Both the position numbers and the translations under genes were made by a program. From Candidatus Aminicenantes bacterium (lineage in GTDB: Bacteria; Acidobacteriota; Aminicenantia; Aminicenantales; UBA8522): a stretch of DNA of 64,000 nucleotides. Where the stretch lies: assembly GCA_037444845.1 (NCBI GenBank), contig JBBILQ010000004.1, positions 12,745 through 76,744 of the forward strand, in the 5' to 3' direction. Shown here one piece after another: positions 3,629 to 59,714 of this stretch (position 1 is the first letter of the stretch; the number at the start of each line of letters is the position of its first letter). The notes under the pieces were generated by a model, which saw only the letters and a list, made by a program, of their open reading frames with translations, did not search any database and was not told the origin of the DNA.

Positions 3629-3970
3629 TCATTCCAACCTAAGTCTTTCCGCTTCGAGGCCAAAATCCTTCACCATAAGTTTGATGGCATGCGCTCTCTT
3701 CTCTGCTTTGAGATTTCCCTCATTGTAGTGGCAATCACCCAGATGACAACCGGGCGTCAGCAGTCCGTTCGACGCATTTCTATTTTGGGATAGCTCCGGC
3801 TTTCTATCCTCCTCATACCTGGCGAACATGACTCCCTTCTGCCTTGCCTTGGTATAATAGCCTTCTCTGAATCCATACGTTCTGATGTCCCGGAACAAAA
3901 CATAAACCTTCGTCCCGGGGAGAAAGCTCTTTTCCCTTCAAGGCGTTCTTCACTGCCTCGGTGCAACAAA
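3629..3970 (-). pseudogene. Decayed hdrA'-'mvhD fusion remnant: partial duplicate of the hdrA/mvhD junction with internal deletion
   Basis: The 89-aa ORF 3629..3898 reads FRDIRTYGFREGYYTKARQKGVMFARYEEDRKPE (matches HdrA 8084..11347 region FRDIRTYGFRESYYSEARRQGVMFARYEEDRKPE) joined to GCHLGDCHYNEGNLKAEKRAHAIKLMVKDFGLEAERLRLE (matches MvhD 7671..8087 GCHPGDCHYKEGNLKAEKRAEAIVLMLEDFGLEADRFKLE). Nucleotide identity is visible, e.g. ctgatgtcccggaacaaaacata shared with 8776..8798. Confidence 0.7.
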
Positions 3971-4028
3971 TGCTGAAGTAATAAATCTTGAATATTCGGT
4001 TGACACGACCGAAATTTCAAGATAATCT

Positions 4029-5198: not shown

Positions 5199-5349
5199 TG
5201 TCAACGCCTCGAGCTCGACCCAGTCTTTGGAAAGCACTGTTGAAGCCCGGGAGGCTGCCGCCGTGGCCAGAAAGACAGCGTCTTTTTAGCATGATAAAAA
5301 TATCGTAAACCGGACTTGAATTCATGGCCATATTAAGATTATTGGCAGG

Positions 5350-6385: not shown

Positions 6386-7155
6386 TTGACAATCGCTGAA
6401 ATCTATTCTCATCTTAATGGGCAGGAGTTTCTCTTGGTGCATAAGCGCGCGCTTTGGAAAGAAATCAAAGCGGTCATTAAAGAAGTCGATGCCGTGAAAT
6501 GCAGGACAAAAATCTCGAAGGAAAAAACGAAGAAAGGAAGAACGCTGTACAGCCCGATTGCTCTCAACGCAGATTTTAAAAGACTGCTCAGGGCAAAGAA
6601 TTGGCAAGAGAGCCGGGTTAGTTACTGGGTGACGAAGAGCGAAAAGCTTATTCGAAAGACGTTGACGATGACCGCGGCCGAGCAAAAACGCGAAATCGAA
6701 GAAGCTGGAGAGAAACCTATTTTTAGCTATAATCAGACGGATTTCGTCAAAGACAGAGTCGCGGTAGAAGTCCAATTCGGGAAATACGCGTTTGTTGCTT
6801 ATGATCTATTCGTAAAACACTTGGCTTTCTATGTTGGCGATCAAATAGCCTGATCTATTCACAAAATGATACGATAAAACGCCCCCTCCCCTGGCGGGAG
6901 GGGATAGAGGGGAGGGGGAATCTTTGAATGATCCCCCTCACCCCGACCCTCTCCCACATGGGGAGAGGAGATTTTTTCCTTTCATTTCGTGAATAGTCCA
7001 GGATAGATGTTGGGATTGAAATTCTTCCGATGAAGACTCTACAGAACGAGATGAGTTCGGGCGTTCCTTATTTTGAGGGTGAGTTTTATAACGTCGTTCG
7101 ACAGGGACGGGGAGTCCCCGCTGTGCCTCTGGTGCTAATCGGAGTCGAAGCTTAA
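6386..7155 (+). pseudogene. BglII-family type II restriction endonuclease gene interrupted by a MITE-A insertion (N-terminal part 6386..6848, C-terminal part 7007..7155)
   Basis: N-terminal ORF ends ...RVAVEVQFGKYAFVAYDLFVKHLAFYVGDQIA*. It contains the BglII-like ALWKEI segment and the catalytic EVQF block (BglII TLVEVQF). The stop codon lies in the MITE terminal repeat. Removing 6849..7006 (element plus one ATAG copy) restores an in-frame 203-aa reading frame: ...DQID VGIEILPMK...VPAVPLVLIGVEA*. Confidence 0.75.
6849..7002 (-). mobile_element. MITE-A copy 1 (154 bp), flanked by 4-bp ATAG duplications; sits inside the REase gene
   Basis: Near-identical to 20977..21116 and 59289..59442. Terminal inverted repeats cctgRYctattcacRaaat; direct repeats atag at 6845..6848 and 7003..7006. 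Confidence 0.85.
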
Positions 7156-8087: not shown

Positions 8088-11000
8088 CCTACTCCTAAGG
8101 CCGCGTTGGCCTGCGCGGCTAACTGTTCAAGGGTAAAGCCTTTGACGAATATTCCCTTCTTGGGACAGGTGGCCATGCAGCACCCGCAGCCCTTGCAGGC
8201 CGTCTCATCCACCTCGACCGTCTTTTTCACCGAACCATTTCTCATGTATTCGATTAATGTAATTGCCTGATAAGGACATGGTTCAATGCAGTAGGCGCAG
8301 CCGTCGCAGTTCTCATCCACCACCTGAGAAATGTTCGCCTCCAGCTCCACACTGTCCTTGGAGAGCACCGTCGATGCCCGGGAGGCTGTCGCCTGGGCCT
8401 GGATGATGCTCTCGTCGATGGCTTTGGCCGAATGAGCCAGGCCGCATAAAAAGACTCCCTCGGTGGCAAAATCAACAGGCCGCAACTTCATGTGGGCTTC
8501 CAGGAAAAACTTCTCCTTGGTTAAGGGGACTTTCAAGAATTTGGCAATCTCCTCGTTCCCCTGATCTGCCACAATTCCGGCCGACAACACGACCAAGTCC
8601 GCGGTAAGCTCCAGGGGCATCTTTAACGTCTGGTCAAAAACCACGACACTCAACCCATTCCCGTTCTGGGACACCTCCGGCTTTCTATCCTCTTCATACC
8701 TGGCGAACATGACTCCCTGCCGCCTGGCTTCGGAATAGTAGCTTTCCCTGAACCCGTACGTCCTGATGTCCCGGAACAAAACATACACATTCGTCTTAGA
8801 AGAAAGCTCTTTTATTTTTAGAGCGTTCTTGACGGCTTCGGTGCAGCAAATCCGGGAGCAGTAGGGCCTTTCCACATCCCGGGAGCCAACGCATTGAATC
8901 ATCACGATGTTCCTGGGAATTCCGTTATTCCTGCCCTTTGACCAAATTCCACCCTCGCCGAGGCGCTGCTCCAGCTCAAGCTGAGTTATGACTCTGTCAT
9001 TCTGTCCGTACAGATACTCCTTGGGTTTATATTGCTGAGCTCCGGTGGCAACGATCACGACGCCGTGTTCAAATTCTTCTGATTTTCCGTTCGTGCTAAT
9101 CGTTGTCTTGAAATTCCCGATTGTCCCTTCAATCTTTTCGATCTTAGCATCTGTGTAAAGAAAGATTTTTCCCGAGTCTTCGACCTGTTCGATAAGGCTT
9201 TTTAACCTGCTCTGCGGGTTTTCTCCGCTTATTAAGTAGTTGATATGCCGGAGATTTCCGCCCAGCTCCTTCTCCTTCTCAACCAGATGGACATAAAACC
9301 CCTGGTTAGCCAGTTCGATTGCCGAAGTCATGCCCGAAAGCCCGCCGCCGATGACGAGGGCAGCTTTAACGATGGGCACGGCTCTTTTCTGGAGAGGGCT
9401 CAATAATCGCGCCTTGGCCACAGCCATTCTGACCAAGTCCCTGGATTTCTCCGTTGCCTTTTCCGGCTCCGCCATATGCACCCAGGAGCACTGGTCCCTG
9501 ATATTGGCCATCTCGAAAAGATAGGGGTTCAGCCCAGCTTCCCTGGCCGTATTCCTGAACAGAGGCTCGTGAGTTCGCGGCGTGCAGGAGGCCACGACGA
9601 CGCGGTTGAGGCTGTGCTCCTTGATTTTTTCCTTTATTCTCTCTTGAGTGTCGTTCGAACAGGTGTAGAGGTTATTTTCTGCGTAAACGACACCGGGAAG
9701 CGTCCTGGCATACTCGACTACATCCAGGACACGGACCACCCCGGCGATATTTGTCCCGCAGTGACAGACGAAGACTCCGATTCGCGGCGCCTGCCCGCTG
9801 ACATCAGTCTCCGGGGGGTATTCCTTGGGAATAATAAGGCTTCCTTTAACGTCTCTTAAGAGCGACAGGACTTTGGACGAGGCGCCCGAGGCCTGCATGA
9901 CCGTCTCCGGTATATCCTTTGGCTCAGTAAAAGGACCGGCGACATACACTCCTTCGCGTTTTGATTCAACCGGAGCAAAAGGAGACGTCTTGCAGAAATG
10001 GAATTCATTGAGCTCGACCCCGAATATTTCAGAAATTTCTTTGGCCGATTTTGGGGGGAGCATGCCGACGGATAAAACAACAAGGTCATACTCACGCGAA
10101 GCCTTCCTGTCGTCCTCCGTTAGATAGTCGACGATCAGGTTTTTTGTTTGAGGGACCTCTTTAATGGTGGGCGGACGACACCTTACATAATTTACTCCAT
10201 GCTCCTTAGCCCTTTGATAATACTCATCAAACCCCTTGCTGAAGGCGCGCATGTCCATGATGTAGACATCACAGTCCAGATCTCCGCTGATATGCTCCTT
10301 GGCAATGATGGCTTCCTTGGTCGCGTACATGCAGCAGACAGAGGAGCAATAATCCCGCTCCGAATCACGCGAGCCCACGCACTGGATAAAGGCTATCCTT
10401 CTGGGTTCGGTCTTGTCATAAGGCCTTAAGACTTTTCCAGAATAGGGGCCCGAAGCAGAGAGGATTCTTTCAAACTCGAGCGAGGTGACGACATTAGGGG
10501 AAGCCCCGTATCCCAAACCCTCTTTGATCTTGGCGTCGAACAGGTCGTATCCCGGCGACAGGATGACCGCGCCGACATCCAATTCCATTTTCTTCTCGGT
10601 CTGGTCATAGTCAATCGCCCCGGCTTCGCAAAACTCCTTGCAGACCCCGCATTCATCCTTGAGCACATGGACACAGTATCGTTCGTCGATCGCTGCTTTA
10701 TGAGGAACGGCCTGGGGATAGGCAATGTAGGCCGCAGCCCGATCGAGCAATCCCTTGTCAAATTCATTCAAGATGGGGATTTCTTTATTCTTGCTGATTT
10801 TCTCAAGCCTAATCCTTTCGGTCGGACAAATAAAGGCACAGGCTCCGCAGGTCTGGCAGACATCGGAATTGGCATCAAACGGCGGGCCGACCTTCCGCTG
10901 AGGTCCGCGATGGACAAACCCGATGGCCGCGACACCCATTCGTTCGCAGCACATTCTTGTGCACAAGCCGCAAAGGAAACAATCATCGTTCCTCTTTGTA

Positions 11001-20910: not shown

Positions 20911-21165
20911 AATAGGCGGATGTTTCTCCTGTCAAGGCGAGCACCCATTGCGTGCGTGGCATCCCATGATAACTAACCTGGACTATTCACGAAATGAAAG
21001 GAAAAAATCCCCTCTCCCCATGTGGGAGAGGGTCGGGGTGAGGGGGATCATTCAAAGATTCCCCCTCCCCCCAGGGGAGGGGCCTGCTTTCTGGCATAAT
21101 TTGTGAATAGGTCAGGCTAACTGAGATCACTTCGTTTCGCTCGCGATGACAAAGTCCTAACGGCA
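20911..21165. repeat. Repeat-C palindromic element (REP-like) split by a nested MITE-A insertion
   Basis: Left half gtcaaggcgagcacccattgcgtgcgtggcatcccatgataa, right half ctgagatcacttcgtttcgctcgcgatgac. Together they align to the uninterrupted copy at 38620..38696. Confidence 0.7.
20977..21116 (+). mobile_element. MITE-A copy 2 (140 bp; 14-bp internal deletion relative to the other copies) with CTAA target duplication
   Basis: ctaa at 20973..20976 and 21117..21120; inserted within repeat C. Confidence 0.85.
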
Positions 21166-27107: not shown

Positions 27108-27890
27108 ATGGAAAAAGAAAAGTTGAAAATCGGCATCTACGAGCTCACCGGCTGCGCCGGCGACGCTCTCCTCATTGTCGACTGCGAAGAGGAGCTTGTG
27201 AACATCTTCAAGGCCGCCGACATCGAGTCCTTCCTCATGGCCAAGAGCGATAACCGCAACGGCGAGCTCGACGTGGCTCTGGTGGAGGGCTCGGTCAGCA
27301 CGGAAAACGAAAAGGAAGAGCTCCTGGATATCAGAAAACGGTCCAAGGTTGTCGTGGCCATAGGCAACTGCGCCTGCGTCGGCGGCATCCAGGCAGCCTT
27401 CCTGGACAAGAAAGACTGGGAGAAGAACTTCAAGAAAGTTTACGGTGCCACCGCCTTCACCCACACCAAACCCGCCCAGAGCAAGCCTATCGACGCGTAC
27501 ATCCGCGTCGATCATTATCTTCCTGGCTGTCCCATCGGGAAAGAGCAGTTTCTTTCGACCTTCGCCCGGATGGTGGAAGGGAACCCGCCGGAGCTTTACC
27601 GCTTCCCCGTTTGCGTCGAATGCAAATGGCATGAAAACGACTGTCTTCTCAACAAAGACATCCCCTGTCTGGGTCCTTTGACATTGGGCGGCTGCGGGTC
27701 CGTTTGCCCGAATCATGCCATCCCCTGCTTTGGCTGCTGGGGCCCGACAGAGGAGGCCAATATGACTTCCGAATACCGCCTTCTCTTAGAAAAAGGCTTT
27801 GACCTCGAAATGATCAAAAAGAGAATGGCCACCTACTCCGGAACGAGGATTGCCGAGTTCTTCGCGCAATTCAGAAAGGAGAAAAGATGA
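27108..27890 (+). CDS. hydD: NiFe hydrogenase small subunit, group 3b (HydD-like)
   Basis: Start MEKEKLKIGIYELTGCAGD with RBS AAGGAGG; GNCACVGG and other cluster Cys motifs. Confidence 0.85.
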   Translation: MEKEKLKIGIYELTGCAGDALLIVDCEEELVNIFKAADIESFLMAKSDNRNGELDVALVEGSVSTENEKEELLDIRKRSKVVVAIGNCACVGGIQAAFLDKKDWEKNFKKVYGATAFTHTKPAQSKPIDAYIRVDHYLPGCPIGKEQFLSTFARMVEGNPPELYRFPVCVECKWHENDCLLNKDIPCLGPLTLGGCGSVCPNHAIPCFGCWGPTEEANMTSEYRLLLEKGFDLEMIKKRMATYSGTRIAEFFAQFRKEKR

Positions 27891-29623
27891 AGACGATCAG
27901 CATCGACCACCTCGCCCGCGTTGAAGGCAATGGCGGCATTTCCGCCACCATCGATGGCCGCGTCGTCACCGAAGTCAAGTTCACGGTCAACGAAGGCCCG
28001 AGACTCATCGAGCGCCTGACGGTCGGCAAGACGCCCGAAGAGGACGTCAGCATCGCTCCCCGGATATGCGCCATCTGCACTCTTTCTCATAAAAACGCCG
28101 TCCTCCGTGCCATGGAGAACGCCCTGGGTGTCAAGGTTCCGGCGAAAGTGACTCTCCTCCGGGAGCTCATGCACATGGGTGAGTTCATCGAAAGCCATTC
28201 CCTGCACGTGTTTTATCTTGCTCTCCCCGATTATGTAGGTTTTCCCAACGCCATTGCCATGGCCTCAAAATTTCCGCTTGAGGTCAAGATCGCCTTAGAG
28301 ATGAAGCAGTTCGGCAACCACATCATGAAAGTCCTGAGCGGCCGGTATATCCACGGCGAAAACCCGGTCATCGGCGGGTTCGGGAAGTACCCCGCCAGGG
28401 ATGAGCTCATCTGGATCAAAAACCGGGCGTTCCAGTTCATGCCCTTTGTTATCAGGACGGTGGACCTGTTCTGCGGCCTTGGCTATCCGGCCATTCCCGA
28501 GGAGGATACCGTCTACGCCTGTTGCGAGCCGGAAGACGGAAAATACGGTCTCTGGGGGGACGAGATCATCCTGTCCACGGGAGAAAAAATCAACAGGGAT
28601 GACTACAGGAGTTTGACAAACGAATTTTTCGTCCCGCATTCCTTTTGCAAGCGCAGCCGGTACAAAGGAAACACGTATTCTGTGGGCGCCCTCGCCCGAG
28701 TCAACGTCCTGGGCGAGAGGCTCGAGGGGGAAACAGGCAAGATGTTCAAGAAATATTTCAACGCCCGCTGGAAAAGGAACCCCCTCTTCCACAACGCTGC
28801 CCAGGCTCTGGAAATTCTTTACGCTTTTGAAAAAATCCCGGAGCTGGTGGATGAAATTCTCAAACACCCAGAGAATCCAGCTTTGGTTCCGTACAAATCC
28901 AAGAGCGGCAAAGGGACAGGCCTGGTGGAAGCTCCCCGGGGCCTCCTCGTCCATCATTATGAAATAGCAGACGGCCTTGTCGCCGACGTCGACATCATCA
29001 CTCCGACCGCTCAGAACGCCGAAGAGATCGAACGATATTGCTACATTGCAGCCCAGAAGCTCTTAGATGAGGGGAAAGAGAGCGAGATCAGAGACAGGAT
29101 GGAGCTCGTCGTCCGGGCGTTTGACCCATGCATCAGCTGTTCGGTCCATATGGCCGAGGTCAAAAAGGCCCCGGCCGAGAACTGGAAAATCAAGCTGGCC
29201 GGGCTCCTTAAAGCCAACCCTGTTTTTATCGGCGTCGGGAAAGAAGGCCGGTCGGACGACCGGGCCGGCCTTGAACTGGCCTTAGAGATGAGGAAAGCCG
29301 GCGTCAAAGACGTCTACCTGGAACAGGAACTCGAAGAGGGCCACATCCTGGAAAAGGCCTCCCGGCGGCCTCTCATTTTCCTGGACATCGCGAACATGGG
29401 AGAACAGGCGGGTAAAATTGCCGTGCTGCCTCTCCAGCACGTCTTCTGGAACTCCGTGCTAAGCCACAGACTCTTGCCCGCCCTCTCGAACAAACTGACC
29501 CACGACGAGATCAAACACGCCTACATTCTCGGCATCCAGCCCAAATCTGTGGAAGAAGGAGACGACTTGTCTCGGCCGGTCCGGCGGGCCCTAAAAAAAA
29601 TCCTGAGTGAAACGATAGATTAA
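27887..29623 (+). CDS. hydA: NiFe hydrogenase large subunit (HydA-like) fused in frame to a C-terminal maturation endopeptidase (HycI/HybD-like) domain
   Basis: RICAICT N-terminal motif; DPCISCSVH C-terminal Ni-binding motif at about aa 410. After a 24-aa linker comes VFIGVGKEGRSDDRAGLELALEM (compare the protease motif LGxGNxxxxDDGxG), then LIFLDIANMGEQAGK and THDEIKHAYILGIQPK. Confidence 0.8.
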   Translation: MKTISIDHLARVEGNGGISATIDGRVVTEVKFTVNEGPRLIERLTVGKTPEEDVSIAPRICAICTLSHKNAVLRAMENALGVKVPAKVTLLRELMHMGEFIESHSLHVFYLALPDYVGFPNAIAMASKFPLEVKIALEMKQFGNHIMKVLSGRYIHGENPVIGGFGKYPARDELIWIKNRAFQFMPFVIRTVDLFCGLGYPAIPEEDTVYACCEPEDGKYGLWGDEIILSTGEKINRDDYRSLTNEFFVPHSFCKRSRYKGNTYSVGALARVNVLGERLEGETGKMFKKYFNARWKRNPLFHNAAQALEILYAFEKIPELVDEILKHPENPALVPYKSKSGKGTGLVEAPRGLLVHHYEIADGLVADVDIITPTAQNAEEIERYCYIAAQKLLDEGKESEIRDRMELVVRAFDPCISCSVHMAEVKKAPAENWKIKLAGLLKANPVFIGVGKEGRSDDRAGLELALEMRKAGVKDVYLEQELEEGHILEKASRRPLIFLDIANMGEQAGKIAVLPLQHVFWNSVLSHRLLPALSNKLTHDEIKHAYILGIQPKSVEEGDDLSRPVRRALKKILSETID

Positions 29624-29718
29624 GTAAGAATATGATCGATCCATTTATCTCTTGTGAGCCTTCCCCTAAAGTGATAGAATCGTTCTCCTGAAAAGAAGTC
29701 GAGGAAATATTGGAACAA

Positions 29719-29739
29719 GCCTGGGGAAAAATTCCCCAG
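29719..29739. promoter_or_regulatory. Palindrome CCTGGGGAAAAATTCCCCAGG: candidate activator binding site and/or hydA terminator hairpin
   Basis: Perfect 9-bp inverted repeat with a 3-nt spacer, about 95 nt after the hydA stop and about 120 bp before the sigma-54 promoter. Confidence 0.45.
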
Positions 29740-29848
29740 GCCGCTTGGATATCGCAGGGCCCAAAAGAGAGAAGAGATGGCTGTTAGCTCTATGTTATTT
29801 AATATCAATAACATAAATATTCCACTCGGGCCACCTCCCCCGCACGTT

Positions 29849-29864
29849 TGGCACACAAATTGCT
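29849..29864 (+). promoter_or_regulatory. Sigma-54 promoter TGGCAC-N5-TTGCT upstream of the receiver gene
   Basis: tTGGCACacaaaTTGCTt is a perfect consensus match; the RBS GAGGA and ATG 29891 follow. Confidence 0.75.
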
Positions 29865-29890
29865 TTACTTCCCTCCCTGAGGAATATGCG

Positions 29891-30262
29891 ATGAGCAGCG
29901 GAGAAAAGAGAATCCTGATCGTCGACCCCGATCCTGTTCAGAGGCGGGACTTGGCCCAGTTTCTTAAGAATGAAAACTACGATCCCGAAACAGCCAGAAA
30001 CCTCTCCGAGGCCATCAAGAAAGTATCCGGGAGAGGTTTTAGCTGTCTGGTGATGGATACTCATCTTCCCGAGATGAAAGGCTATGAAGCTGTTTCCATT
30101 CTCAAGAACCTCGACCCGGGGCTCAAGATCATCATGACGACGAAGAAAAACACCAAGCGGCTTGAGGCCAAAGTCCGGGAGCAGGACATCTTCTTCTATT
30201 TTATCAAGTCCTTCGGCAAAGATGAGCTGAAGCTTGCCATAAGAAACGCTTTTAACAAGTAA
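29891..30262 (+). CDS. Single-domain response regulator (CheY-like receiver)
   Basis: Start chosen at MSSGEKRILIVDPD; phospho-acceptor Asp context CLVMDTHLPEMKG; conserved K in IIMTTKK. Confidence 0.7.
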   Translation: MSSGEKRILIVDPDPVQRRDLAQFLKNENYDPETARNLSEAIKKVSGRGFSCLVMDTHLPEMKGYEAVSILKNLDPGLKIIMTTKKNTKRLEAKVREQDIFFYFIKSFGKDELKLAIRNAFNK

Positions 30263-30275
30263 AGGAGGAAAGGCA

Positions 30276-30683
30276 ATGAACAAAAGCGCCCAGAAAATCT
30301 TGGTCATCGACGACGACCCCGATTTCTTGGCTGCGGTGACCCCAATCTTGAAATCAGCCCTTTACGAAGTTGCGACGGCCACAAACCCAAAGGAGGCCAA
30401 GGAAAAGATTTTTTCCGAAAAGCCCAACCTCATCCTGCTCGACATCATGATGGACAGCCTTTTTGACGGCTTTTCCCTCTGTCACGCCATTAAGACTTCG
30501 AAGGAATTTAGAGACTATAAAGATACACCCATCATTTTCATTTCAGCCGTAAAGGAGATCGCCGGCACCAGGTTCCAGTTCAAGGGCGATGAAGAGGGCA
30601 TGGCCGGTCCCGATGACTATATCGACAAGCCGGTCAAGCCCGACGACCTGCTGGCCCGGATCGCCAAACTCCTCAAAAAATAG
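30276..30683 (+). CDS. Single-domain response regulator (receiver) with a divergent C-terminal half
   Basis: KILVIDDDPDFL...LILLDIMMDS...IIFISA; strong RBS AAGGAGG. Confidence 0.75.
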   Translation: MNKSAQKILVIDDDPDFLAAVTPILKSALYEVATATNPKEAKEKIFSEKPNLILLDIMMDSLFDGFSLCHAIKTSKEFRDYKDTPIIFISAVKEIAGTRFQFKGDEEGMAGPDDYIDKPVKPDDLLARIAKLLKK

Positions 30684-30744
30684 AATTCCTCCGCCTCCTC
30701 CATTCCCTTCCCGCTGCCCCAGGAAAAGAAAGTAACTTCTATAA

Positions 30745-30866
30745 TGGGCGCAGGGGGCTGCTCTAAAGCCCCCGTAGCGGAGGGGGGACCCGTCGGCTTC
30801 TCCGACGGGGGGAACCGACGGGACTGGTTCCCCGGGGCGCGGGGGCCAAGAGCAGCCTCCTGCGCC
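30745..30866 (+). ncRNA. Repeat B copy 1: about 122-nt structured element (outer 19-bp stem enclosing three hairpins), candidate small RNA preceded by TATAAT
   Basis: Second copy at 52253..52376 shows compensatory changes in the stems. G-U pairs are possible only on the plus strand. TATAAT lies at 30739..30744, immediately upstream. Confidence 0.5.
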
Positions 30867-30961
30867 CTATCCAATGATATAAGTAGAAATGCTTAGCGGA
30901 GTAAAATCCGGGCTGAAATGAATCGCGATTTGCGCTAAAATAGAGCTCCAGGAGAAAAGCC

Positions 30962-32074
30962 GTGGCCGAAAAAAACCCGATTGTTCTTGTTATTGACGAC
31001 GAAGAAGCCATGCGGGATTCGTGCTCCCTCATCCTGGCCAAAGGCGGGTTCACCGCCGTGACAGCCGAAGACGGCCAGGTTGGGCTGGAAAAAATAAGGG
31101 ATCTCAAACCCGACGTCGCTCTCATCGACCTGAAGATGCCGGGCATCAGCGGGTTCGACGTCCTGGAAAAAACGAAAGAGATTGACCCCCAGCTCATTCC
31201 CATCGTCATCACGGGATATGCGACCGTGGATTCTGCCGTCGAAGCGATGAAAAAAGGCGCTTATGACTTCCTGCCCAAGCCCTTCACTCCCGAGGAGCTC
31301 CGGATTATCATCAGCCGGGCGCTGGAAAGGCGCCGGCTGGCTATGGAGGCCGAGACACTGCGGCGCGAAAAGAAGCTCATGGAGGATAATTTCATCACCA
31401 TGGTCACCCACCAGCTCCGCAGCCCGCTGGTGGCCATCCAGCAGTATTTCGAGGTCATCCTGGCTGGACTGGCCGGCCAGGTCGATAAAACCCAGCAGGA
31501 GATGATCCTGAGAGCCCGGGAGCGGCTGGACAGCCTGCTCCGGCTGATCAACGACTGGCTGGACCTGGCCAGAATCGACCGGGGCCAGATCGTGGGCAAG
31601 CTCAAACCCGTGGCTCTCGACAACCTGCTCAAGAAGCAGGTTGAATTTTTAGAGTCGCTGGCGAAGGAGTATGAGGTGAGCCTGGAACTCGAGCCGGCCA
31701 AAGGGCCAGCCGCTGTGCTGGGCGATGAGCAGATGCTGGACCAGGTCTTCTCCAATATCATCACCAATGCCATCAAGTACAACAAGCCGAAAGGCTCAGT
31801 GACCATCTCGATGGGTCATGAGGACAGCTTCGTCGTCGTCAAGGTAAAGGACACGGGGATCGGGATTGCCAGGGAACACCTTCCGTTCATCTTCGACCAA
31901 TTCTACCGTGTCAGCCGCAGGGAGGACCAGAAAATCAAGGGGACTGGCCTGGGGCTTTCAATCGCCAAAAAAATCGTCGAAGCCCACAACGGCTCGATAG
32001 ACGCGGAGAGCGAGCCGGGTCAAGGCTCCACGTTCAGCGTCAGGCTTCCCCGGCCGGAAGATGAAACAAAATGA
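30962..32074 (+). CDS. Hybrid response regulator-histidine kinase (N-terminal receiver, HisKA, HATPase_c)
   Basis: IVLVIDDEEAMRD...IDLKMPGISG; HQLRSPLVAIQQY; DTGIGIAREHLPFIFDQFYRV...GLGLSIAKKIVEAHNGSI. Confidence 0.85.
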   Translation: MAEKNPIVLVIDDEEAMRDSCSLILAKGGFTAVTAEDGQVGLEKIRDLKPDVALIDLKMPGISGFDVLEKTKEIDPQLIPIVITGYATVDSAVEAMKKGAYDFLPKPFTPEELRIIISRALERRRLAMEAETLRREKKLMEDNFITMVTHQLRSPLVAIQQYFEVILAGLAGQVDKTQQEMILRARERLDSLLRLINDWLDLARIDRGQIVGKLKPVALDNLLKKQVEFLESLAKEYEVSLELEPAKGPAAVLGDEQMLDQVFSNIITNAIKYNKPKGSVTISMGHEDSFVVVKVKDTGIGIAREHLPFIFDQFYRVSRREDQKIKGTGLGLSIAKKIVEAHNGSIDAESEPGQGSTFSVRLPRPEDETK

Positions 32075-32550
32075 AGACTCTTGTTTTAGGCCTGGGAAAC
32101 GAGCTCTACGGAGACGACGGAATCGGCGTCCAGGTCATTCGCCATCTCAGGGAGGAAATGACAAAAATGCCGACCGGGGATTTCCAGGATGTCGACCTGG
32201 AAGAATGCTCCCTGTCCGGCCTCGCCCTTTTAGATGTTATCGTCGGCTACGACCGGCTCATCCTCATCGACACCATCAAGCGGGAGGCCCCCCAAACGGG
32301 AAGAATCCAGGTTTTGGGAGAGGCCGATATCCGGGCCGTTCCCGGCCCCTCTCCCCATTACGCCTCGGTGCCGCAGGCGATCGAAATCGGGCGAAGCCTC
32401 GGCCTCCACATGCCCTCCCGCATCCAGGTCGTGGCCGTCGAGGCAAAGAACCTTCATTCTTTAGGAGAAAAGCTATCGGAGGAAATGGAAAAAAACATGC
32501 CGGCCATTGCCGAGAAGGTCAAAAAAATCTTGAGAAAAACAGAGGATTAG
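32071..32550 (+). CDS. hycI: Hydrogenase maturation endopeptidase (HycI/HoxW/HybD family)
   Basis: LVLGLGNELYGDDGIGV signature; start overlaps the upstream stop (ATGA). Confidence 0.85.
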   Translation: MKTLVLGLGNELYGDDGIGVQVIRHLREEMTKMPTGDFQDVDLEECSLSGLALLDVIVGYDRLILIDTIKREAPQTGRIQVLGEADIRAVPGPSPHYASVPQAIEIGRSLGLHMPSRIQVVAVEAKNLHSLGEKLSEEMEKNMPAIAEKVKKILRKTED

Positions 32551-32553
32551 GAA

Positions 32554-33225
32554 GTGGACAGAAAAGAGGTTCTTGTCCGCGAGGAGATCTTAGCCTCAAA
32601 CAAGAAAATAGCCGCTGAAATCCGCGCCCGGCTGGAAAAAGAAGGCATCCTGACCGTCAATCTCCTCAGCTCGCCGGGAGCAGGCAAGACCTCGCTCTTG
32701 GAGAGAATCGCTGAAGCTTTCAAACTGAATCACCGCATGGCTGTCATCGAGGGCGATATCGAAACTGACCTGGACGCCGAGCGGATCCGGAAGAAGGGTG
32801 TGACGGCCTGGCAGATCACCACCGGCGGCGCCTGCCATCTCGAGGCCAGGATGGTCGCCAGGCTCATTCCCGAAATTCCCTCCGAGACCAAGTTTTTGTT
32901 CATCGAAAACGTCGGCAACCTTGTCTGTCCGGCCAGCTACGACCTGGGAGAAAGCCTGCGCTGCGTCCTCCTCTCACTGCCCGAGGGCGACGACAAACCA
33001 AAGAAATATCCCAAGGCTTTTGCCACGGCCGACTGCCTCATTTTCACCAAGGCCGACCTGATGCCCGTCGTTCCCTTCGACCTGAGGCGGGCGGAAAAGG
33101 AAGCCCTGGAGATCAACCCGAAGCTCCGCGTTTTCCTGACCTCTGCCCTCAGGGGCGCGGGCATTGCCGAGCTTGTCCGCTTCTTTATTGAGCGCCGCGT
33201 CAACATGATCCAGCGTCATGCATGA
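32554..33225 (+). CDS. hypB: Hydrogenase nickel-incorporation GTPase HypB
   Basis: P-loop SSPGAGKTSLL; ENVGNLVCP; SYD...; probable GTG start. Confidence 0.85.
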   Translation: MDRKEVLVREEILASNKKIAAEIRARLEKEGILTVNLLSSPGAGKTSLLERIAEAFKLNHRMAVIEGDIETDLDAERIRKKGVTAWQITTGGACHLEARMVARLIPEIPSETKFLFIENVGNLVCPASYDLGESLRCVLLSLPEGDDKPKKYPKAFATADCLIFTKADLMPVVPFDLRRAEKEALEINPKLRVFLTSALRGAGIAELVRFFIERRVNMIQRHA

Positions 33226-33562
33226 ACTTTCCATCATCGCCAGCCTGTTTGAAATCCTGGAAGAAAAAGCCCAGGAGCAGAAAGCGAACAAAATCGTCCT
33301 CGTCAAGTTAAAGGTCGGAAAACTGGCGGGCGCCGTCCCCGAGTTCCTCGAAACCGCCTTCAATATTTACAAGGACGGAACAATCGCCAGAGAAGCGATC
33401 CTGGAAATCGAGGAAGTCCCCCTCAGGATTCGCTGCCGCACGTGTCAGGCCATTGCCGAAAGGGATGACTTTGTCTTCGTCTGCCCGGCCTGCGGTTCGA
33501 CCGTCCTCGAAACTCTCGAAGGGACCGAGCTTCTCCTCGAAAAAATCGCCCTGGAAATCTAA
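33218..33562 (+). CDS. hypA: Hydrogenase nickel-insertion protein HypA
   Basis: MHELSIIASL N-terminus; zinc-finger CRTCQ...CPACGS. Confidence 0.85.
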   Translation: MHELSIIASLFEILEEKAQEQKANKIVLVKLKVGKLAGAVPEFLETAFNIYKDGTIAREAILEIEEVPLRIRCRTCQAIAERDDFVFVCPACGSTVLETLEGTELLLEKIALEI

Positions 33563-52056: not shown

Positions 52057-52252
52057 GATAACCTCCTTTCGTCTTCCCCTTATGCAAACCGGAGGCCAAA
52101 GCCTGGATGTTGTATAGTTACTTTATTTTCAATGAGATAGAATTTTGTCCGGCTGGCTGATGTCAATGTCCGTTGACTTTTTCTGCCGCCGCGATCAACC
52201 GGCGTTGACGCAGGAGTGCGGGAAGAATCTCCAAATATGTGATTTCTATTAT

Positions 52253-52376
52253 GGGTGCAAGGGGCTGCTCTGAAGCCCCCGTAGCGGAGGGGGGACCCAT
52301 CGGATTCTCCGATGGGGGGAACCGACGGGACTGGTTCCCCCGGGGCGCGGGGGCCAAGGGCAGCCTCTTGCGCCCA
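52253..52376 (+). ncRNA. Repeat B copy 2 (structured element, candidate small RNA) preceded by TATTAT
   Basis: About 90% identical to 30745..30866, with compensatory substitutions in two stems. Confidence 0.5.
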
Positions 52377-52412
52377 ATTGAATCACATAACGGAGATATC
52401 TACAGGAGTGTT

Positions 52413-59035: not shown

Positions 59036-59288
59036 GATCGTGTTTTCCAGCCCAAACGGCCGCCTCTATTCAAGACGACTGACCCCGCCTCTTCTTTCTC
59101 AGCCTCTGGAGCATCAACCCTGATGAAAATACTCTAAGTATGAATATAAAGACTTGGATGAGCGCCTAATTATTGACTGGTAATCCATTCCATCTGAGGC
59201 GGAAGCGTTCCCAGTGAGATGAATTGAAAGACATCCCTTAAGATCCCAATAGTCTGGGGGATATTGTCATAGGCGAGTTTTCTATTAA

Positions 59289-59442
59289 CCTGGACTATTC
59301 ACGAAATGAAAGGAAAAAATCCCCTCTCCCCATGTGGGAGAGGGTCGGGGTGAGGGGGATCATTCAAAGATTCCCCCTCCCCTCTATCCCCTCCCCCCAG
59401 GGGAGGGGCCTGCTTTCTGGCATAATTCGTGAATAGGTCAGG
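59289..59442 (+). mobile_element. MITE-A copy 3 (154 bp) flanked by TTAA / TTAG
   Basis: Identical architecture to copies 1 and 2; intergenic between dprA and the nucleotidyltransferase gene. Confidence 0.85.
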
Positions 59443-59714
59443 TTAGATAAGTTTTAAGCATTCATCCCTGCTGGCATCGATAAGGAGTATAAACCGGCAG
59501 CTCGGAAAGCGTCAAGTTGCCGGAGAAGGAATTGGTTCTTGGTTGTACCAGATCTATATAAAACGTCATAAATAGTCGGGCGCAATTTTAGGCGTTATCA
59601 CTCCTGCCTTTATGGATAGATCACGTTGGTGAAGAAGTAAACTGGCGCCTTCGAAGGCAGTTCCTTATTCGAAAATGATAGCAACACAGGGTCCTGCCGA
59701 ATTTTCGCCTTGCT

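Follow-up and report, generated by a model that had tools for sequence, protein, structure and literature searches.

A small non-coding mobile element of Candidatus Aminicenantes carries a conserved, strand-specific folded core that may be a new structured RNA

The window (the whole stretch of DNA that was analyzed, 64 kb in length) contains exactly two copies of a GC-rich repeat, both on the + strand, at 30745-30866 (copy A) and 52253-52376 (copy B), which are ~92% identical. A first-pass annotation made from the sequence alone had reported a 122-nt element occurring twice, and this was confirmed by both searches performed: a 38-nt probe matched the window only at these two sites (0 matches expected from 100 shuffles), and a covariance model run with filters off returned only the same two matches in the window, with 138 and 134 bits and E values of ~1e-28. 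The G+C content of the element is 71 to 74%, against 54% for the window. Copy A is located in the intergenic region between a response-regulator gene and a response-regulator-histidine-kinase gene, both on the + strand. The intergenic region that holds copy B is bordered by two - strand genes, one AIR-synthase-like and the other ComEA-like. Copy A is thus sense and copy B antisense to the flanking genes. The proteins adjoining the two copies have their closest homologs in Candidatus Aminicenantes, with identities ranging from 84% to 92%. The region around copy A (27887-33562) is a hydrogenase cluster in which the NiFe hydrogenase large subunit gene and two response-regulator genes are followed by the element and the response-regulator/histidine-kinase gene; the orthologous genes downstream in relatives encode HycI, CobW/HypB-like, and HypA proteins.

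Other repeats are also present in the window. A second, unrelated palindromic repeat (presumed "Repeat A") occurs at 6846-7006, 20973-21119, and 59286-59445; two of these three copies are identical over at least 97 nt, and one is inverted, with arms that are 98% complementary. With its G/C-run hairpins and AT-rich ends, it is probably another miniature element (MITE). The direct repeats at 3769-3986 and 8650-8866 and at 5205-5275 and 8336-8406, which are 76 to 84% identical and spaced by 4.9 and 3.1 kb, respectively, resemble segments of paralogous genes rather than mobile repeats.

Comparison with relatives reveals that the repeat is the center of a larger inserted unit. Copy B occupies 52221-52403 (+ strand, 183 bp) and has the termini GGAAGAATCTCC and GGAGATATCTAC, in line with the terminal inverted repeat (TIR) consensus of its subfamily, GGAAGCATCTC...GAGATGCTTAC. 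It is flanked by the target-site duplications AGGAGTGCG (52212-52220) and AGGAGTGTT (52404-52412), as defined by comparison with the empty site in locus L240, whose neighboring protein is 92% identical. The L240 spacer contains a single ACGACTCCT (...GGTCGAATAA ACGACTCCT GCGTCAACGG...), and the filled site in the window, read on the - strand, is ...GGTCGAATGA AACACTCCT, 183 bp, CGCACTCCT GCGTCAACGC...; the single 9-bp target of L240 is thus doubled around copy B, which indicates an empty site and a target duplication. In blastn searches of copy B against relatives, the match spans ~52220-52397. Copy A occupies 30728-30896 (+ strand, ~169 bp, ends approximate); its left arm is shortened and partly decayed, and at its right end GAAATGCTTAG corresponds to GAGATGCTTAC, the terminus of the family. 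Its site is empty in L244 and L245, where the neighboring proteins are 93% and 92% identical, the flanks align with the window on both sides of copy A, and the same two genes are separated by 101 and 104 nt versus 278 nt in the window. The target duplication of copy A has decayed to 5 of 9 positions. Among relatives with window-type termini, when scored at ends located by the terminus consensus, three duplications match at 9 of 9 positions, and the mean is 5.4 of 9, compared with 2.4 when the flanks are permuted.

The window copies are shorter than ~300 bp, lack a conserved ORF, and possess TIRs, target-site duplications, empty sites in relatives, and many dispersed copies elsewhere. Both are, with near certainty, insertions of a small non-coding mobile element of the MITE type. 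The first-pass annotation had named a DNA-level MITE with target duplications as what would speak against its RNA reading, and the inverted repeats, duplications, and empty sites reveal that a MITE is what both copies are. No parent insertion sequence with the same ends was seen in the 64-kb window or in the fetched loci. In L246 (100-456) and L247 (40-399), in which the neighboring protein is 85% identical, the intergenic site of copy A holds another element with related termini (GGAAAAAAGTATCTCC...GAGATGCTCTCC) and a different interior (cargo). Since the site is empty in the closer relatives (92% to 93%), this suggests an insertion hot spot or a replacement of cargo. An ORF of 51 codons spans 30743-30896, from the ATG in TATAATG to the TAG of the element's right terminus. 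Protein coding was rejected because copy B loses this frame through a 1-nt indel and one of the internal hairpins (hairpin A, below) varies in length by steps that are not multiples of three.

The element belongs to a family of more than 240 loci in Aminicenantes, Methylomirabilota, Desulfaltia, and sediment metagenomes. At least 118 loci in species-representative genomes contain a 20-mer taken from the core, and these loci come from Aminicenantes, Methylomirabilota, Desulfaltia, and metagenome-assembled genomes labeled Eubacteriales or Clostridiales. The latter labels are probably wrong because JARYMI01, which carries one of them, encodes a protein 92% identical to a window protein. When the hairpin B block of the core was used as an independent probe, at least 120 metagenome loci were retrieved, and the 20-mer was present in 33 of the 125 hairpin B block hits among the metagenome matches listed. 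For about one genome hit in four, a locus end is no more than 150 nt away, and a Logan contig (L239, SRR11582151) identical to 29896-30818 of the window ends inside copy A at hairpin B. Both findings are to be expected of a repeat at which assemblies break. Viral contigs contained no exact match to the hairpin B block, and copy B had no blastn match in plasmids. Full-text literature searches with the family motifs returned unrelated primers only, and those for MITEs of Aminicenantes and for structured RNAs borne by MITEs gave nothing relevant. The GC-rich center is part of a large family that carries no annotation, shares a conserved three-way-junction fold, and is present in several phyla of uncultured bacteria.

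The family fold consists of a long stem P1 (~19 to 25 bp), an internal loop, a shorter stem P2 (6 to 7 bp), and a three-way junction. The junction contains the unpaired, purine-rich strand J1 (RUAGCGGAGGGGGG, with the nearly invariant 13-nt strand UAGCGGAGGGGGG), hairpin A, which is closed by CCC/GGG and variable in both stem and loop, and hairpin B (GGAACC GNCGGGACU GGUUCC), whose 9-nt loop GNCGGGACU is invariant. In copy A, the two strands of P1 (30746-30764 and 30849-30867, 19 bp) enclose the P2 strands GCCCCCG (30768-30774) and CGGGGGC (30840-30846), J1 (UAGCGGAGGGGGGA, 30775-30788), hairpin A (CCCGTCGG/CCGACGGG, 30789-30809), and hairpin B (GGGAACC GACGGGACU GGUUCCC, 30810-30832), all on the + strand. 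The G-run at 30834-30837 is an alternative partner of the 5' strand of P2, and in the canonical type the register of P2 is ambiguous between two tandem G-runs. The structured module of copy B (52253-52375, + strand), a full-length match to the covariance model with 133.7 bits, contains P1 (52253-52271 with 52357-52375), P2 (52275-52281 with 52348-52354), J1 (52282-52295), hairpin A (52296-52316), and hairpin B (52317-52339).

Alignment of the 126-nt cores of the two window copies gives 9 substitutions and 1 indel; wherever a stem is affected, the pairing is retained, and no pair is broken. As the first-pass annotation had noticed, two stem positions change together, each from G-C to A-T, one in the closing stem and the other in its second hairpin. 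Two further substitutions replace Watson-Crick pairing with U·G, which is paired on the + strand only. Both strands fold far better than shuffled sequences (z scores of -7.2 and -7.9).

Covariation extends across more than 200 homologs and is strong in P1, P2, and hairpin A. In the genome set, aligned with MAFFT, 86.6% of the cells were paired, compared with 80.0% in shuffled and at most 59% in slid alignments, and there were 224 double-change cells versus 90. In the metagenome set, 93.4% of the cells were paired, compared with 74.1% (shuffled) and at most 57% (slid), with 693 double-change cells versus 178; the pairing counts of this set are inflated because its alignment was fitted to the model. 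In both sets, cell counts overstate the number of independent events since many copies share ancestry. Double changes in the metagenome set affect 19 of the 19 pairs of P1, 6 of the 7 of P2, and 6 of the 8 of hairpin A. P2 occurs as GCCCCCG/CGGGGGC, GGCTCCC/GGGAGCC, CTGAGACA/TGTCTCAG, AGACCC/GGGTCT, and GTACCC/GGGTGC, with J1 constant in all of them. Most positions of J1 are 94 to 99% conserved and two are 78 to 87% conserved among 106 metagenome members not selected on J1, and the ACGGGA of the hairpin B loop is 90 to 100% conserved among 74 genome members not selected on the loop. Both J1 and this loop remain constant in L183, L150, L216, and L147 although the sequences of P1, P2, and hairpin A are completely different there. 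The pair L014/L053 was considered as an orthologous pair for a rate comparison and was discarded since their left flanks could not be aligned.

The 19-bp closing stem and the second and third hairpins of the first-pass model are present in this fold. Its first hairpin (GCCCCC/GGGGGG) can be drawn in the sequence but is not a pairing conserved by the family: in divergent members, changes in the C-run are compensated by the downstream G-rich strand of P2, with the GGGGGG unchanged, and the covariation of P2 with a constant J1 removes this hairpin. For the window copies, the energy of the family fold is -86.4 kcal/mol, that of the fold with the first hairpin is -82.3 kcal/mol, and that of the minimum-energy fold is -100.3 kcal/mol. 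The minimum-energy fold, which pairs the 5' strand of hairpin A with the hairpin B loop, was rejected because it is not conserved: where hairpin A changes, the compensating change lies in hairpin A itself.

The wobble bias toward the + strand that had been noted between the two copies holds for the family. Overall, 171 G·T pairs stand against 58 A·C pairs (~3:1), and in P2 and hairpin A together the numbers are 61 and 9, which indicates that the + strand is the one under structural constraint. These data make strand-specific structural selection on the + strand fold quite probable, and a fold of one strand with invariant unpaired nucleotides, selected independently of the transposon ends, is well supported.

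The hexamers TATAAT (30740-30745, + strand) and TATTAT (52247-52252, + strand) directly abut the first G of the stem in copies A and B, but the first-pass annotation's view of them as the element's own TATAAT box was not supported. No -35/-10 pair was found at either window copy, and the hexamer is a local form of the arm consensus TTTATGAT, which belongs to the MITE arm and not to the core. The TA-type and Methylomirabilota subfamilies lack it, and in flipped copies (e.g., L044, L069, and L155) it lies on the opposite side. Neither window copy has an intrinsic terminator (a GC-rich hairpin with a U-tract), and no promoter or terminator was found family-wide.

Several different types of ends surround the core. 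The window subfamily has AT-rich TIRs beginning with GGAAGCATCTC or GTAAGCATCTC and a 9-bp duplication. The TA-type subfamily has the ends C-TA-ATAC...GTAT-TA-G, or more fully C-TA-ATACAAACG...CGTTTGTAT-TA-G. IS630/Tc1 elements duplicate TA, preferentially within CTAG (PMC2170065), and the ends of the TA-type subfamily fit an IS630-type TA duplication. The arms of a third subfamily are of the TTCTCCCGATTTCGG type, and a clear target duplication was not seen there. Some copies have no frame, only long covarying stems, and are without an obvious target duplication. While the arms of the different subfamilies cannot be aligned, the core is ~95% identical. The core is common to at least two, and probably three, unrelated MITE frames and also occurs outside any frame. 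Every TA-type end pair in the fetched loci encloses a core, and no coreless TA-type frame was found there. An extra GTAAGCATCTC match in L192, considered as a coreless frame or parent, proved not to be an element.

In several copies, including L044, L069, L155, L031, L077, and L079, the core is flipped with respect to the slightly asymmetric arms, as called by inspection only. Hairpin A, whose length is variable and which is a site of nested insertion in relatives, is replaced or interrupted in L005, L015, L017, and L087, and either hairpin A or hairpin B is replaced by other hairpin elements in some copies. In L150 (10676-11240, - strand), four divergent members, each followed by an AT-rich spacer, are arranged in tandem at intervals of ~145 nt within a ~700-nt intergenic region adjoining a fucose-isomerase-like gene. 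In L216, three copies fill gaps of a sugar-metabolism operon, all antisense to the genes. In L140 (- strand, ~150 nt upstream of the core), a member is interrupted inside J1 after GCCCCCGTA by a member of the third frame with CGTA on both sides, so family members appear to insert into each other. The 549 neighboring ORFs were clustered, and no recurring linked gene or transposase family was found among them, the clusters comprising only common paralogs, such as TPR, histidine kinase, SDR, ABC, and outer membrane proteins. The 51 copies with a classifiable gene context showed no orientation bias (18 divergent, 14 convergent, 9 tandem-sense, and 10 tandem-antisense). The presence of the core in several frames, in both orientations, and without a frame indicates that it is a cargo with its own constraint and not part of what the transposases of these frames recognize.

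The Rfam comparison suggested in the first-pass annotation gave no match to the window at the gathering score for any of the 4227 models, which included self-cleaving ribozymes, IS605-orfB/omega RNAs, HEARO, and tRNA. In the E-value mode, only chance-level hits below the threshold were obtained for the window (E values of ~1.6 to 4.6), and divergent members matched mostly generic hairpin (microRNA precursor) models, also at the chance level. No self-cleaving ribozyme model gave a hit to the window or the divergent members, even in the E-value mode, and no tRNA or tmRNA was detected by ARAGORN.

Taken as a whole, the explanation proposed here, that MITE insertions carry a core folded on one strand and that this core is most likely an RNA-level cargo, has a probability of about 0.7. 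The element is a non-autonomous DNA transposon that makes a 9-bp target duplication and must be moved in trans by a transposase. The core would act as a folded single strand, most likely as RNA supplied by read-through transcription or by weak promoters in the arms. Half of the classifiable copies are antisense to their neighbors, so read-through would give the folded strand in some copies only. The RNA may serve the element family, for instance as a protein-binding or processing module, and not the neighboring host genes, while the long stem may have REP- or Correia-like local effects on transcripts that contain the element. The core may thus be a new structured RNA without being a stand-alone RNA gene, and assigning it any specific function would be speculative.

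Whether the constrained strand acts as RNA or as single-stranded DNA (ssDNA) is a question on which the chances appear about even. G·T pairs are tolerated in ssDNA hairpins too, so the strand bias does not separate RNA from ssDNA. REPIN hairpins are DNA elements and also exhibit compensatory change (PMC3116915); covariation alone is therefore no proof of RNA. The main rival is a REPIN-like ssDNA element, a P1-P2-junction unit moved by a Y1/HUH transposase (RAYT or IS200-like) that recognizes hairpin B and the conserved GTAG/ATAG in J1, in which case the DDE-type MITE copies would be secondary nestings. This would account for J1 and hairpin B being the most conserved parts independently of the arms, as in a recognition site, for the strand-specific structure, and for the core in either orientation and several frames; frame-less copies without an obvious target duplication, the tandem cluster in L150, the other hairpin elements nested in loops, and the compensatory change known in REPINs also fit. 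However, the architecture is the reverse of a REPIN, with a conserved center and variable stems and without an inverted REP doublet, the window copies were mobilized in the manner of DDE-type MITEs, producing a 9-bp duplication, and no Y1 transposase recurs among the 549 ORFs near copies. The family also spans phyla, whereas REPIN-RAYT systems are reported to be mostly inherited vertically. A REPIN-like unit is thus considered unlikely, although it is less so than the readings that follow.

An independent small-RNA gene with a TATAAT promoter of its own, as had been proposed from the window alone, a neutral palindrome, and a terminator-like role for the host each fit less of the evidence than an RNA-level cargo. 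The conserved fold and the -10-like hexamer next to P1 in both window copies, with TATGAT at this place in the subfamily, are what a small-RNA gene would predict, but the hexamer has no -35 partner, no terminator follows, and the hexamer sits in the mobile arm, is missing from two subfamilies, and changes sides in flipped copies such as L044, L069, and L155. Moreover, a start ~7 nt downstream of the hexamer would cut off part of the 5' strand of P1, and the copies are insertions absent from close relatives; such a gene is improbable. A neutral palindromic MITE, in which pairing is maintained by hairpin repair or template switching and the core looks conserved because the copies are young, agrees with the demonstrated MITE, with the many near-identical copies, and with the stable folding of both strands. 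It has little probability, given that J1 and the hairpin B loop are unchanged in L183, L150, L216, and L147 where P1, P2, and hairpin A differ wholly, that the core is shared by subfamilies with unalignable arms, and that the G·T excess is strand specific. A host-level REP-like element, serving neighboring genes as a transcript-end barrier, an RNase III site, or a terminator, would explain the strictly intergenic copies, which often fill short operon gaps (L216), the very stable GC-rich stem in both orientations, and the T-run after one divergent copy (L183). The window copies, however, have no U-tract, 18 of 51 copies lie in divergent intergenic regions, which are thus not shunned, the same sites lack the element in close relatives, and a simple barrier leaves the asymmetric invariant junction and loop unexplained, so this role is also hardly to be expected.

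The cargo reading bears on how such elements are conserved. MITEs are usually conserved at their ends, which are the transposase binding sites, whereas the conserved part here is an asymmetric folded center that is common to frames with TA and 9-bp duplications and is kept through a total change of the stems. Conservation of the center across different transposition chemistries indicates that it is selected by something other than those transposases. It can tentatively be proposed that the core represents an undescribed class of structured RNA, defined by a three-way junction, the invariant 13-nt strand, and the 9-nt loop and carried as cargo by several MITE families, unrelated to each other, in Acidobacteriota (Aminicenantia), Methylomirabilota, and Desulfobacterota. 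If so, it would be a bacterial counterpart of the functional RNAs borne by SINEs, perhaps a protein-binding decoy or a new ribozyme. A function as RNA would add an abundant new RNA class to poorly known sediment and groundwater bacteria, and recognition as ssDNA would imply a second, nested mobilization system. In practical terms, the element breaks assemblies of these genomes and could be annotated with the covariance model used here.

The core shares with the structured RNAs of Rfam the pattern of covarying stems combined with invariant junction and loop nucleotides, although it matches none of them at the gathering score. REP and REPIN sequences resemble the family as interspersed extragenic palindromes with compensatory hairpin changes (PMC3116915), a GTAG-like motif, and occasional clusters. 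However, in a REPIN two inverted copies of a conserved REP flank a variable spacer and there is no target duplication, whereas the present family has a conserved center and variable stems, with TIR ends and a 9-bp duplication in the window copies, and no RAYT was seen in the window or among the ORFs next to copies. One large subfamily shares its TA-duplication ends with the IS630/Tc1-mariner-type MITEs (PMC2170065). The window subfamily differs in its GGAAGCATCTC ends and 9-bp duplication, and only the core is in common. Bacterial MITEs with stable hairpin transcripts include Correia/CREE of Neisseria, RUP and BOX of pneumococcus, ERIC, and Nezha. Like these, the present elements are small, non-coding, multicopy, and intergenic, with TIRs, target duplications, and a long hairpin. 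In contrast to these MITEs, conservation is highest in an asymmetric three-way junction at the center and not at the ends, and one core occurs in at least two, and probably three, unrelated frames (the TA, 9-bp, and TTCTCCCGATTTCGG types) in several phyla.
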